Source: an uncultured Salinisphaerales bacterium
GTDB lineage: Bacteria; Pseudomonadota; Gammaproteobacteria; Nevskiales; CAJXLF01
Length of the DNA: 64,000 nt
Reading direction: 5' to 3'
Assembly (NCBI GenBank): GCA_913055805.1
Contig: CAJXLF010000001.1
Span: 146,761-210,760 of the forward strand
Shown in pieces: positions 14,283 to 17,399 of this stretch (the stretch's first letter is position 1; each line of letters opens with the position of its first letter). The translations under genes and the position numbers were made by a program. The notes beneath the pieces were generated by a model, which was given only the letters and a program-made list of their open reading frames with translations, searched no databases and was not told the DNA's origin.

Positions 14283-14290
14283 ATAAAAAA
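14283..14290. repeat. left copy of 8-bp target site duplication ATAAAAAA
   Basis: Identical octamer at 16455-16462, immediately outside the two terminal inverted repeats. Confidence 0.8.
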
Positions 14291-14316
14291 GGGTCTTATA
14301 TACATAACAAACCCAC
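14291..14316. repeat. IS terminal inverted repeat (left)
   Basis: See mobile element; 24/26 match to the reverse complement of 16429-16454. Confidence 0.85.
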
Positions 14317-14369
14317 TATTAATGGGCTATGCTCGGACTCCCGCTAATAACTAACTGGGAGACTGGCTT

Positions 14370-14558
14370 ATGGCCGAATATGATTTGGATGCCGAAATCG
14401 GTGCTTTGCAGTTTTTAGTTCTGACCCTAATCGCTTCTCATCCTGATGCTGAGAAGCTGCTTCACGAGTTTGATTACAGGATGAAGGGGACAAGGATGAG
14501 TCAGAACATGTTGGAAACGTTGACCCGTTATCGTCGCCATGTTGAATCTGCGATCTAA
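14370..14558 (+). CDS. hypothetical small protein (62 aa), IS passenger
   Basis: ATG preceded by GGGAGA. Followed by the hairpin terminator at 14605-14636. No family recognised. Confidence 0.4.
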   Translation: MAEYDLDAEIGALQFLVLTLIASHPDAEKLLHEFDYRMKGTRMSQNMLETLTRYRRHVESAI

Positions 14559-14604
14559 GCGGTTCCGGCAAATCATACAAATACATTTTTGACTCCATAA
14601 CGAC

Positions 14605-14636
14605 GAAGCCCGCTATTCAGCGGGCTTCTTCTTTTC
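14605..14636. terminator. rho-independent terminator inside the IS
   Basis: GAAGCCCGC-TATTCA-GCGGGCTTC, a perfect 9-bp stem followed by TTCTTTTCC. Lies between the convergent passenger genes. Confidence 0.6.
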
Positions 14637-14729
14637 CGGTTTCTGTTTGGGTTTGGGCGGCGTGTTTAGCATTCGCCGGAGTATTTCATCCATTCTCCGC
14701 TTGGTTTCTCTATCTTCGTTTTGGCTCAT
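14613..14729 (-). CDS. possible 38-aa basic/Pro-rich peptide
   Basis: Hand-read: MSQNEDRETKRRMDEILRRMLNTPPKPKQKPEKKKPAE. Its ATG overlaps the stop of the 108-aa ORF (ATGA). Its stop lies in the terminator loop. Very short, so weak. Confidence 0.25.
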   Translation of the reverse strand: MSQNEDRETKRRMDEILRRMLNTPPKPKQKPEKKKPAE

Positions 14730-15052
14730 TTCTTCAGTACCTTTGCTGCGCCAAGCGCCTTATCTACCGCCTGCTCAACAATGCTGATATCAAAGCGTTC
14801 GGCGAGAACCAACAACAGCAAAACTTCGAGGGCGAGTATCGAAACCGGCCCGGCCCAGCTCTGCATGGAGGAAAAAACATGTATATCTAGAACAATGGTA
14901 CCAACCAGAATGAATAGAAAAACATCTACTTTTCTGGCTTTTTGCTCTGCCGCCAAGTCTTCTTGCAGTTCGTTTATTTGGCGGTCTTTCGGAGTTTCTT
15001 GGGCTTCTTTTCCAAGCGAATCAAACTCTGTTCCGGATTCCTTATTTGCCAT
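14726..15052 (-). CDS. small 2-TM membrane protein (108 aa), candidate toxin partner of the Panacea-domain protein
   Basis: Charged N-terminal segment, then two hydrophobic helices (VDVFLFILVGTIVLDIHVFSSM and VSILALEVLLLLVLA). Overlaps the upstream gene by 11 nt. The toxin role is inference. Confidence 0.55.
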   Translation of the reverse strand: MANKESGTEFDSLGKEAQETPKDRQINELQEDLAAEQKARKVDVFLFILVGTIVLDIHVFSSMQSWAGPVSILALEVLLLLVLAERFDISIVEQAVDKALGAAKVLKK

Positions 15053-15494
15053 CGAATCTCATCCTATATTCGGCGAGGATGTCTTCGTTTGGAATAATCG
15101 CGCCGTGCCCAGGAAAATAATTCTTCGCCCAAGCACCCTTTTCGTCATGCGTGATAGCCACTAGCCTGCTTGGCGCAAGCTTGGACAAACTGTCTACGGC
15201 ACCCTCCAAAAAATCAGACAAGTCCTGATCTGCAATATCTGGAACAGAATGAAATACATTCTTTACAGGCTTTTTCCCGAAAGCCTTTACCTGATGATAA
15301 ACAGGCGGATTCACGGGGCCGTAGTCCCATGCCTCAAAATTGCCGTCAATCAGCGGATCGCCGTCTTGCTGGCCCATGTAAACCATGTGTGCCAGATAAA
15401 GGATTTTCTGCAATTGGAGATTGGAAATTCCCCAGTCGGATAATCTGCAAATTTCCTTGGCTACTGATAATGATGAAATCGCCATTTTTAACAC
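15042..15494 (-). CDS. Panacea (DUF4065, SocA/GepA-like) domain protein, putative antitoxin
   Basis: NLQLQKILYLAHMVYMGQQDGDPLIDGNFEAWDYGPVNPPVYHQVK matches the hallmark LQKLLY...PL..FEAW.YGPV.P.VY pattern of DUF4065. Overlaps the transposase stop by 7 nt. Confidence 0.75.
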   Translation of the reverse strand: MLKMAISSLSVAKEICRLSDWGISNLQLQKILYLAHMVYMGQQDGDPLIDGNFEAWDYGPVNPPVYHQVKAFGKKPVKNVFHSVPDIADQDLSDFLEGAVDSLSKLAPSRLVAITHDEKGAWAKNYFPGHGAIIPNEDILAEYRMRFDGK

Positions 15495-16387
15495 TCCTTG
15501 TACAGGAGCCTCTTCCCCGATATTCCCATCATAACAACATGGGCGCGTTCCATGTCACTTATATGGCGATGGTTATATCGAAAATCAAACTCGCCGACAT
15601 ACCGCTTCAAATGCTGTTCGCCTACGTGGTGATAAGTACCCACAAGGCCGCGCTTCAGAATGCTGAAGTAGCTTTCAATCGTGTTCGTGTGGACGTCGCC
15701 ACGCACATACTCACCGATGCCATGCGACACCACGCCATGATCGGCAAACTCGCGGCCAACCTTCGTGTAAACGCTGGCTTCGTCGGTCATGATCTTGGCT
15801 TCAGCGGCTACCTGTTCCTTGATGATTGGCTTCAGGGTGTCGCCGTTCACGCGGGGAACGTGGAAACTGCGAGCCTTGCCGCCGCGTTCAACCAGCGTGA
15901 AGATTTTCATCTTGTGGTCATAGCCGCGAGCAGTCTTGCCTTTCTTCTTGCTGGTGCCCCAGTAGGTTTCATCAATCTCAACCGTACCGCCGCCAGCACC
16001 GAAGATACCGCCATCTTCCTTCATGGCCTCACGGATACGGTGAGTCATGAACCACGCAGATTTGTACGTGATTCCTAGCATGCGATGAAGTTGGTGGCTG
16101 CTAATGCCTTTCTTGCTGGCACTCATCAGATAGACCGCCATCAGCCACTTGTTCAGCGGAATCTTGCTGCGCTCAAACACAGTGCCCACAGTTACAGAGA
16201 ATTGCTTACGGCATTTGTACTCGCCGCACTTGTACAGACCGGGGCGGGCGCTCTTGCCAGTAATGGCATACGCCTTATCCTCAACTCCGCAATGAGGGCA
16301 AACCGGGCCATTGGGCCAACGGATTTCCTCAAGGTATTCGCGGGCTTTATCGGCGTCTTGGAACTGTGGGGCGGTTAAGTTGCACAT
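15488..16387 (-). CDS. IS1595 family transposase (ISXO2-like DDE domain with N-terminal zinc ribbon)
   Basis: N-terminal CPHCG...YKCGEYKCRKQFSVTVGTVFERSKIPLNKWLMAVYLM, KGISSHQLHRMLGITYKSAWFMTHRIREAM and VEIDETYWG are characteristic of IS1595-family transposases. Confidence 0.9.
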   Translation of the reverse strand: MCNLTAPQFQDADKAREYLEEIRWPNGPVCPHCGVEDKAYAITGKSARPGLYKCGEYKCRKQFSVTVGTVFERSKIPLNKWLMAVYLMSASKKGISSHQLHRMLGITYKSAWFMTHRIREAMKEDGGIFGAGGGTVEIDETYWGTSKKKGKTARGYDHKMKIFTLVERGGKARSFHVPRVNGDTLKPIIKEQVAAEAKIMTDEASVYTKVGREFADHGVVSHGIGEYVRGDVHTNTIESYFSILKRGLVGTYHHVGEQHLKRYVGEFDFRYNHRHISDMERAHVVMMGISGKRLLYKEC

Positions 16388-16428
16388 GGCTTTGTCTCCA
16401 AACTACAACTTAACTGTAATCCTTTACT

Positions 16429-16454
16429 GTGGGTTTGTCAAGTATATAAGACCC
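16429..16454. repeat. IS terminal inverted repeat (right)
   Basis: Reverse complement matches 14291-14316 at 24/26 positions. Confidence 0.85.
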
Positions 16455-16462
16455 ATAAAAAA
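16455..16462. repeat. right copy of 8-bp target site duplication ATAAAAAA
   Basis: Identical to 14283-14290. Confidence 0.8.
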
Positions 16463-16487
16463 ACCCGGCCATGGCCGGGTTTTTTTA
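16456..16487. terminator. bidirectional rho-independent terminator (rpoH side intact, tetR side displaced by the IS)
   Basis: AAAAAAA-CCCGGCCATGGCCGGG-TTTTTTT, 19 nt downstream of the rpoH stop. The A-tract is the IS target site. Confidence 0.65.
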
Positions 16488-16505
16488 TGCGGAAGCGGGA
16501 GTACC

Positions 16506-17399
<894 letters not shown>

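Follow-up and report, generated by a model that had tools for sequence, protein, structure and literature searches.

Toxin-antitoxin systems that pair a Panacea-domain antitoxin (PanA) with a toxin (PanT), together termed PanATs, include three with validated membrane-targeting PanTs, namely T3 of E. coli, T12 of Bartonella and one from Helicobacter (Kurata et al. 2022, PMC8832971). The T3 and T12 toxins have a charged N-terminus followed by predicted transmembrane helices, their expression depolarises and permeabilises cells, and several T12 entries place the antitoxin first, with overlaps of -4 to -29 nucleotides (nt) (PMC8832971). The Discussion of that study remarks that PanATs frequently occur near transposases and could serve as addiction modules, and cluster pT35 of its Dataset S1 holds IS1595 transposases that the pipeline marked as false-positive toxins; they lie upstream of PanA, by 54 nt in Mesorhizobium kowhaii and by -8 nt in Novosphingobium nitrogenifigens (PMC8832971). 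In the stand-alone PanA of Bartonella choladocola, the substitutions Y56A and H120E abolish neutralisation, and contacts of the Panacea domain are predicted with the N-terminal region of PanT and the short helix before its transmembrane part (Ernits et al. 2023, PMC10440598). IS1595 elements with passenger genes have been described (Siguier, Gagnevin and Chandler 2009, as cited in PMC3129680), and in the Tn3 family toxin-antitoxin pairs occur within the transposition module, where they have been proposed to share the transposase's expression and to stabilise the element (Lima-Mendez et al. 2020, PMC7157771). The subject of the present analysis is a complete IS1595-family insertion sequence (IS) that carries a Panacea pair; it occupies positions 14291-16454 (2,164 bp) of a 64,000-nt stretch, called the window here, from contig CAJXLF010000001.1 (positions 146,761 to 210,760, assembly GCA_913055805.1) of an uncultured Salinisphaerales bacterium.

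What this locus adds to the described systems is that the pair, a Panacea-domain protein of 147 amino acids (aa) and a 108-aa membrane protein, lies inside the IS boundaries. Neither the association of PanA with IS1595 transposases nor the addiction idea is new, since Kurata et al. recorded cluster pT35 and discussed addiction; stabilisation of the IS by addiction, already in the literature (Kurata et al. 2022), is a candidate role here. The pair probably works as a PanAT-type toxin-antitoxin system on a transporter IS. The features on which the argument draws, each open reading frame (ORF) being given by its product, are the following in window coordinates:

14283-14290, no strand: first copy of the target-site duplication, ATAAAAAA, the identical 8-mer standing at both IS ends
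14291-14316, no strand: IRR, the transposase-distal terminal inverted repeat, GGGTCTTATATACATAACAAACCCAC, 26 nt, with 24/26 matches to 16429-16454
14605-14628, no strand: GC-rich hairpin, GAAGCCCGC / GCGGGCTTC, with a perfect stem and a loop that contains the 38-aa ORF's stop codon
14613-14729, minus strand: 38-aa basic peptide with the motif DEILRRMLNTPPKP and a Lys-rich tail, the small ORF of the IS clade
14726-15052, minus strand: 108-aa PanT-like small membrane protein, overlapping panA by 11 nt and always downstream of the PanA clade
15042-15485, minus strand: 147-aa stand-alone Panacea-domain protein, a PanA-type antitoxin candidate, matched by Pfam and phrog_1281
15488-16387, minus strand: IS1595-family DDE transposase, 299 aa, with an N-terminal zinc ribbon, identified by Pfam and NCBIfam
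16413-16441, minus strand: sigma-70-like candidate promoter, TTGACA-17 nt-TACAGT, 10/12 consensus, its -35 box within the inverted repeat
16429-16454, no strand: IRL, the transposase-proximal terminal inverted repeat, pairing with 14291-14316
16455-16462, no strand: second copy of the target-site duplication, ATAAAAAA, which is the rpoH terminator T-tract on the other strand

The boundaries follow from the inverted repeats and the flanking ATAAAAAA. The 26-nt repeat has just two occurrences across the window, against 0 expected, and the perfect 8-bp duplication sits in the T-tract of the terminator of rpoH (16506-17399, minus strand), the IS lying immediately behind that gene. The IS ends are of the GGnnnTTATATAC type, those of the window reading GGGTCTTAT and those of most relatives GGCAATTAT or GGCGATTAT. 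Members of the ISNwi1 subgroup of IS1595 in ISfinder have ends of the form ggnnatTAT and 8-bp duplications, and some of them carry passenger genes. The family assignment is borne out by terminal inverted repeats, an 8-bp direct duplication and a transposase with a zinc ribbon and a DDE_Tnp_IS1595 domain (Pfam E-values 1.7e-15 for Zn_ribbon_IS1595 and 3.3e-37 for DDE_Tnp_IS1595; NCBIfam transpos_IS1595 1.8e-61, 207.7 bits against a cut-off of 75). The G+C content of the IS is 49%, compared with 59% for the window. The initial annotation, made from the sequence of the window, had proposed a toxin-antitoxin passenger in an IS at 14613-15494; the pair is indeed true cargo, enclosed by the inverted repeats and the target duplication, and that interval misses the rest of the element, including a 62-aa ORF considered below. 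All contigs carrying the gene of the exact 108-aa protein show the same rpoH/TetR site, and the whole IS is present with identical sequence in four of the five contigs fetched, the fifth being a 1.5-kb fragment. With all copies of the exact IS at one chromosomal site, only one insertion event is known. A search of plasmids for other copies of the IS gave only distant transposase matches, and tblastn with PanA on plasmids returned two weak hits.

Between 14613 and 16387 the minus strand holds four consecutive ORFs (299, 150, 108 and 38 aa by mechanical calling) that abut or overlap, the Panacea and 108-aa ORFs (panA and panT) sharing 11 nt and the 108-aa and 38-aa ORFs (panT and p38) overlapping by ATGA. 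This chain, with both overlaps, had been proposed from the outset and is real. A further claim, a 7-nt overlap of the transposase stop with the start of the Panacea gene, depends on the mechanical call (15042-15494, minus strand, 150 aa), which begins at a GTG. An ATG at 15485 lies 2 nt past the transposase TAA and has a Shine-Dalgarno sequence, AAGGAG, 8 nt upstream; gene callers on five independent metagenome contigs give 147 aa for the Panacea protein, and homologues in its clade begin at the equivalent Met, with the consensus MxVSxLxAAK. This ATG is thus the likely start of a 147-aa protein, and the transposase gene (tnp) and panA are 2 nt apart. A consensus scan finds a single promoter-like site on the minus strand of the IS (16441-16413), no promoter or terminator between the transposase gene and panA, and no terminator-like site separating the four ORFs; its TTGACA belongs to the inverted-repeat consensus throughout the IS clade. 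The site is a candidate promoter for the entire operon. The hairpin at 14605-14628, which had been taken for the terminator of the chain, is perfect as described; its T-tract is on the plus strand, and the terminator call holds for that strand only.

That the chain goes beyond chance is evident from a relative, the 851-bp contig L006, in which the Panacea protein, the 108-aa protein and the small ORF have aa identities of 67%, 62% and 75%, respectively. L006 keeps the gene order, Panacea followed by 108-aa protein, small ORF and hairpin, with the same kind of overlaps, and the genes are under strong purifying selection: the proportion of synonymous differences (pS) is 0.77 (saturated) for the Panacea gene and 0.85 (saturated) for the 108-aa gene, against non-synonymous differences of 0.19 and 0.23, and the ratio of non-synonymous to synonymous change (dN/dS) for the small ORF is about 0.28. 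Nucleotide identity, about 70% elsewhere, rises to about 93% between window 14593-14700 and L006:730-851, a stretch of the last 110 nt or so that takes in two-thirds of the small ORF, on its 3' side, together with the hairpin and the few bases after it. An RNA element was considered as the cause and rejected, as a Rfam search of this conserved 3' region gave no match at gathering score, only terminator-like noise, and an ORF overlapping the hairpin explains the conservation better, its Lys-Lys-Lys-Pro-Ala end doubling as the A-tract and 5' arm of the hairpin. The jump in identity is consistent with such a double constraint, on coding and on structure, or with a segment of the IS backbone having recombined recently.

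The 147-aa protein is a Panacea protein by profile search, as had been anticipated from its LQKILYLA...FEAWDYGPV motif: Pfam PF13274 (SocA_Panacea) matches with 55.9 bits against a gathering threshold of 25.7 (E 9.7e-15) over profile positions 1-112 of 113, the phage family phrog_1281 matches at 7.6e-31, and 393 homologues were found. The NCBIfam SocA equivalog NF047745 scores 96 bits, under its cut-off of 190, which makes this a Panacea-domain protein that is not a SocA orthologue. It consists of the Panacea domain alone, without an extra N- or C-terminal domain. In the PanA clade Y55 (in AWDYGPV) hardly varies and H113 (in ITH) not at all, and by position these residues appear to correspond to Y56 and H120 of the B. 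choladocola PanA. Comparison of the 147-aa protein with solved structures, by fold and by sequence, was uninformative.

The 108-aa protein is built of a charged N-terminal helix, two transmembrane helices and an amphipathic C-terminal helix. Hydropathy peaks at about residues 45-62 and 67-86, and an AlphaFold2 model from a 50-sequence alignment (mean predicted local distance difference test score 74) places helices at 21-62, 67-86 and 89-107, forming a helical hairpin; both agree with the charged N-terminus and two hydrophobic helices noted at first sight. Across the family, the charged N-terminal stretch has the motif [KR]D[KR]QIxELQExLxxERDxRxxDRF, the first transmembrane helix (TM1) a nearly invariant Asp followed by a short MPxFGGP turn, and the second (TM2) a conserved Glu and a basic end of the RRMG type, after which comes the amphipathic tail. 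A word-based search retrieved the protein itself and L006 only, and it might have passed for an orphan; this was rejected through the homologues found beside PanA and through profile searches. The latter yield 315 clusters at 90% identity, of about 100-126 aa, which lack any Pfam domain and without exception are labelled 'hypothetical'; in an exhaustive HMMER scan the family has 730 representatives at 50% identity, of which 398 score below 1e-10. The initial annotation recognised no described toxin family in this protein, and the family is unnamed in Pfam, NCBIfam, PHROGs and PADLOC; as to its being an oddity, a family of 730 representatives says otherwise. Weak, sub-threshold DUF5345 matches occur in 18 of the 50 members of alignment A2 (best E 2.9e-4); they span the charged helix and the first transmembrane helix, and could reflect remote kinship or shared composition.

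Behind each of the PanA homologues inspected at 50-60% identity stands an overlapping ORF of 102-122 aa that aligns with the 108-aa protein, these pairs coming from Salinisphaera, a metagenome-assembled genome of Rhodobiaceae, a prophage-like contig and the Bordetella avium phage IFTN6, the Bordetella protein matching a five-sequence profile of the family at E 1e-19. A homologous partner stands directly 3' of PanA in the loci L006, L087, L088, L091 and L093, and in a PanA-anchored metagenome scan it lies directly downstream in about 34 of 49 loci with a PanA identity of at least 42%, the same scan finding no partner at any locus with a PanA identity below 42%. The 108-aa protein is the regular, conserved, overlapping partner of one PanA clade, and a conserved neighbouring gene on the same strand is what serves to call PanAT loci. 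In Salinisphaera sp. PC39 (L087:4931-5539) the pair of PanA and partner is found beside a pair of HigB-like toxin and helix-turn-helix antitoxin; together they make up a small toxin-antitoxin island, flanked by aroB-like and gltB-like genes.

Of the 80 closest relatives of the transposase (L007-L086), nearly all have ends of the form GG(c/g)(a/g)ATTATATACTTGAC, the clade end type being GGnnATTATATACTTGAC, and their elements are 1.8-4.6 kb long with 0.9-3.4 kb of cargo in either orientation to the transposase. Exact 8-bp duplications flank 30 of the relatives and are 77% A+T, about one third of the 8-bp duplications being T or A runs beside strong GC hairpins (as in the window, L008, L010 and L021); the 30 reconstructed empty sites together with window 16454-16489 suggest a possible preference of the clade for terminator T-tracts. 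Its cargo includes a protein of about 260 aa with a PIN-domain protein of about 180 aa, DUF4145 proteins, trypsin-like peptidases and others. One cassette recurs, in which the transposase is followed by a protein of about 250-270 aa and one of about 160-185 aa that weakly matches a PIN domain (E about 2-3e-4), in some cases with the small basic ORF described next behind them (L015:4915-6254, L025, L011:4942-6292, L029, L035:4935-6297, L047); this is possibly a second toxin-antitoxin-like cassette.

The 38-aa peptide belongs to the same clade. It falls in a family of small basic ORFs (36-60 aa) with the motif D-x-[IV]-L-R-R-M-L-x-T-P-P-x-P and a Lys-rich tail, here called TPP-motif ORFs, which occur in 54 of the 80 transposase-anchored loci (phmmer E<1; 43 distinct versions; L009, L011, L014, L015, L021, L034, L035 and L088 among the loci with such an ORF) and are often the last ORF of the cargo operon, in either orientation of the operon, a subset ending in KKKPA and having its stop codon within a GC-hairpin loop. 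Of the Panacea-anchored loci only L088-L090, where this IS clade is present, have one; L006 has one too, and at 851 bp that contig could not show a transposase. The small ORF of L088 lies ahead of PanA. The distribution follows the IS clade, and the peptide is therefore part of the IS backbone rather than of the toxin-antitoxin pair; the hairpin that holds its stop codon belongs to the backbone as well. The peptide matches no family of Pfam or NCBIfam, and the ideas that it is a YoeB-like toxin or adds a third component to the toxin-antitoxin pair were discarded, the NCBIfam match (E 0.016, 15 bits) being insignificant and the distribution being that of the IS. In L028:4881-5984 and L058:4935-6059, both on the minus strand, the TPP motif and basic tail form the C-terminus of trypsin-like peptidases of 367 and 374 aa (Pfam Trypsin_2, 1.6e-6 and 5.2e-9), which are convergent to the transposase; the motif thus behaves as a transferable tail module.

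The link of the PanA pair with IS1595 elements recurs elsewhere. L088 holds a second transporter IS of the same inverted-repeat clade, with ends CCTAATTATATAC... and the 8-bp duplication AATAATTT, in which the pair is convergent to the transposase, and in L117, L129 and L135 the order transposase, PanA, PanT is found on one strand behind more distant IS1595 transposases, the transposase stop and PanA start of L117 overlapping as TGATG. At L088:5801-5880 two IS ends of the same clade meet head to head with nothing but the shared 8-bp AATAATTT between them, so that another element of the clade directly adjoins the one carrying the PanAT.

If the pair is a working PanAT, its operation might be pictured as follows. 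A promoter with its -35 box in the left inverted repeat would drive a single mRNA, tnp-panA-panT-p38, and with AAGGAG placed within tnp and overlapping or abutting junctions throughout, translation of all four genes would be coupled. To judge from the family, PanA would bind the cytoplasmic charged N-terminal segment of the 108-aa protein (...KDRQIxELQExLxxERDxRxxDRF) and so stop the two-helix hairpin from acting in the inner membrane; once PanA is lost or triggered, the hairpin, with Asp in TM1 and Glu in TM2, may depolarise or permeabilise the membrane, as do the membrane PanTs from E. coli and Bartonella that have been validated. The pay-off to the element could be stabilisation of the IS or its replicon, or a host benefit such as phage exclusion. 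By this architecture and partnership the 108-aa protein most likely works like a membrane PanT, and it is not filed as a member of T3 or T12.

Several observations count against this picture. PanA and the 108-aa protein are both absent from all 80 loci of the closest transposase relatives, so that the pair is acquired cargo and not a fixed feature of the IS lineage. The 108-aa family has no significant sequence similarity to the T12 member of Aggregatibacter phage S1249 (YP_003344835.1) or to the PanT of E. coli phage PhiR47_1, the likeness being one of architecture only: the family hidden Markov model gives E 9.1 at Z=1000 and E 26, respectively, and hhalign returns a probability of 0.4% in the family-versus-PanT comparison. 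Membership of T3 or T12 was provisionally rejected given the absence of similarity to these two comparators, and a cross-reference of Dataset S1 by family accessions and genus names gave no link to the 108-aa family. Comparing the 108-aa protein with solved structures by sequence and fold produced no informative match. Toxicity and neutralisation are predictions for every member of its family, just as co-transcription with tnp is predicted from the consensus scan. On the operon strand the hairpin is followed by GTCGTTATGG and not by the U-tract of an intrinsic terminator. A PanA without a DNA-binding domain leaves autoregulation unaccounted for, and with the copies of the exact IS all at a single site, present-day transposition is presumed only.

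Readings other than, or additional to, element stabilisation bear mainly on what the pair is kept for. It is a tentative possibility that the cargo is anti-phage: PanA would sense a cue of infection and free the membrane protein, the cell would be killed or arrested, and the IS would be kept for this benefit to the host rather than through any lethality of its loss. The same pair occurs in Bordetella avium phages, in prophage-like contigs and at six loci of viral collections, PanA matches the phage family phrog_1281, and the clade's other cargo (PIN-domain pairs, DUF4145 proteins, trypsin-like peptidases) looks defence- or toxin-antitoxin-like; the authors of NetFlax, moreover, propose Panacea as a sensor and tie toxin-antitoxin systems to phage defence (PMC10440598). 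PADLOC defence models, however, give no significant match, and this reading is compatible with that of a working PanAT pair, from which it differs in the selective benefit only.

An addiction specific to the IS, put forward in the initial annotation, in which toxin and antitoxin would be made only from the transposase promoter and loss or silencing of the element would kill the cell, is a candidate that does not exclude defence, and it seems rather unlikely. On this reading, a burst of expression upon arrival in a new host would favour cells in which the element has moved to a stable replicon. The tight coupling to tnp in the window, in L117, L129 and L135 and in two genomes of the pT35 cluster accords with it, as do the analogous model for pairs abutting the Tn3-family transposition module (PMC7157771) and the suggestion of addiction for PanATs near transposases (PMC8832971). 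The pair of L088, however, is convergent to tnp and hence cannot share its promoter, most members of the pair family adjoin no transposase, and precise loss of an IS from a chromosome is rare, which leaves selection by post-segregational killing weak here.

That there is no toxin-antitoxin pair at all, the genes forming a benign mobile two-protein module such as a membrane-anchored sensor or regulator, is improbable, for although the weak sub-threshold matches of 18 of 50 members lead to DUF5345, a family of small membrane proteins, ten NetFlax candidate pairs are non-toxic in E. coli (PMC10440598) and the 108-aa protein has no recognisable catalytic or pore motif, a gene order with the antitoxin first, overlapping genes, a patchy distribution on mobile DNA and the protein architecture fit validated membrane PanATs, and in L087 the pair adjoins a HigB/HigA toxin-antitoxin pair.

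The element holds one further candidate gene, which lies between the hairpin and the far inverted repeat on the strand that bears the hairpin T-tract:

14370-14558, plus strand: convergent 62-aa ORF inside the IS, a putative gene, called on metagenome contigs

Its GC content at codon positions 1/2/3 (0.52/0.33/0.51) is coding-like; searches of 176 loci and of viral contigs turned up no homologue, and it matches no family. An alternative gene on the minus strand, a 76-aa ORF at 14368-14598, was set aside on account of a composition that is not coding-like.

Taken as a whole, the locus is a precisely delimited Panacea pair forming the cargo of a simple 2.2-kb IS, an association of a kind that surveys filtered out as false positives, and the question of whether a toxin-antitoxin pair stabilises an IS or 'pays rent' for it becomes addressable on an element of this size. 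It also brings forward a large unnamed family of small membrane proteins (the 730 representatives) as a candidate membrane toxin family partnering one PanA clade, and it points to a conserved small protein common to a clade of cargo-carrying IS1595 elements. It is conceivable, and on balance doubtful, that this clade is a cargo-swapping platform, composed of transposase, TPP-motif protein and, frequently, a bidirectional hairpin, which takes up interchangeable cassettes and lands preferentially in terminator T-tracts. If so, the TPP small protein would be an undescribed IS accessory factor, acting in transposition control or in coupling the expression of the cargo, and the interchangeable two-gene cassettes would be toxin-antitoxin- or defence-like, among them PanA/PanT, the PIN protein with the protein that precedes it, DUF4145 and the trypsin-like peptidase.

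Set against the described systems, the locus shares something with each. SocAB of Caulobacter is the founding Panacea system, and SocA is a ClpXP adaptor, a role to which nothing at the window locus points. The antitoxin here likewise has a Panacea/DUF4065 domain, whereas its partner is a small membrane protein and not SocB (cluster T10 of Kurata et al.). With the IS1595 transporter ISs the element shares its transposase, short inverted repeats, A+T-rich 8-bp duplication and genes between tnp and the far end, while differing from them in that the cargo is a PanAT pair, apparently coupled to tnp in translation. As in the Tn3 family, the toxin-antitoxin pair adjoins the transposition genes instead of being distal cargo; the Tn3 pairs, however, sit by the res site and resolvase and are of classical type II families, whereas here a Panacea protein with a candidate membrane toxin is found in a 2.2-kb IS of another transposon family and mechanism. 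The closest likeness in build is to the membrane PanATs (T3, T12 and PanT_D11:PanA), in which a stand-alone Panacea gene comes first and is overlapped or closely followed by a small partner gene, which are found in chromosomes and prophages and near transposases, and whose core Tyr (before beta2) and His (alpha5) appear, by position, to have counterparts in the 147-aa protein; like the T3 and T12 PanTs, the 108-aa protein has a charged N-terminus and two C-terminal transmembrane helices. The locus is thus a clean new example joining threads already known separately: passenger-carrying ISs, membrane PanATs, the proximity of PanA to IS1595 transposases, and the toxin-antitoxin pairs of Tn3 transposons.

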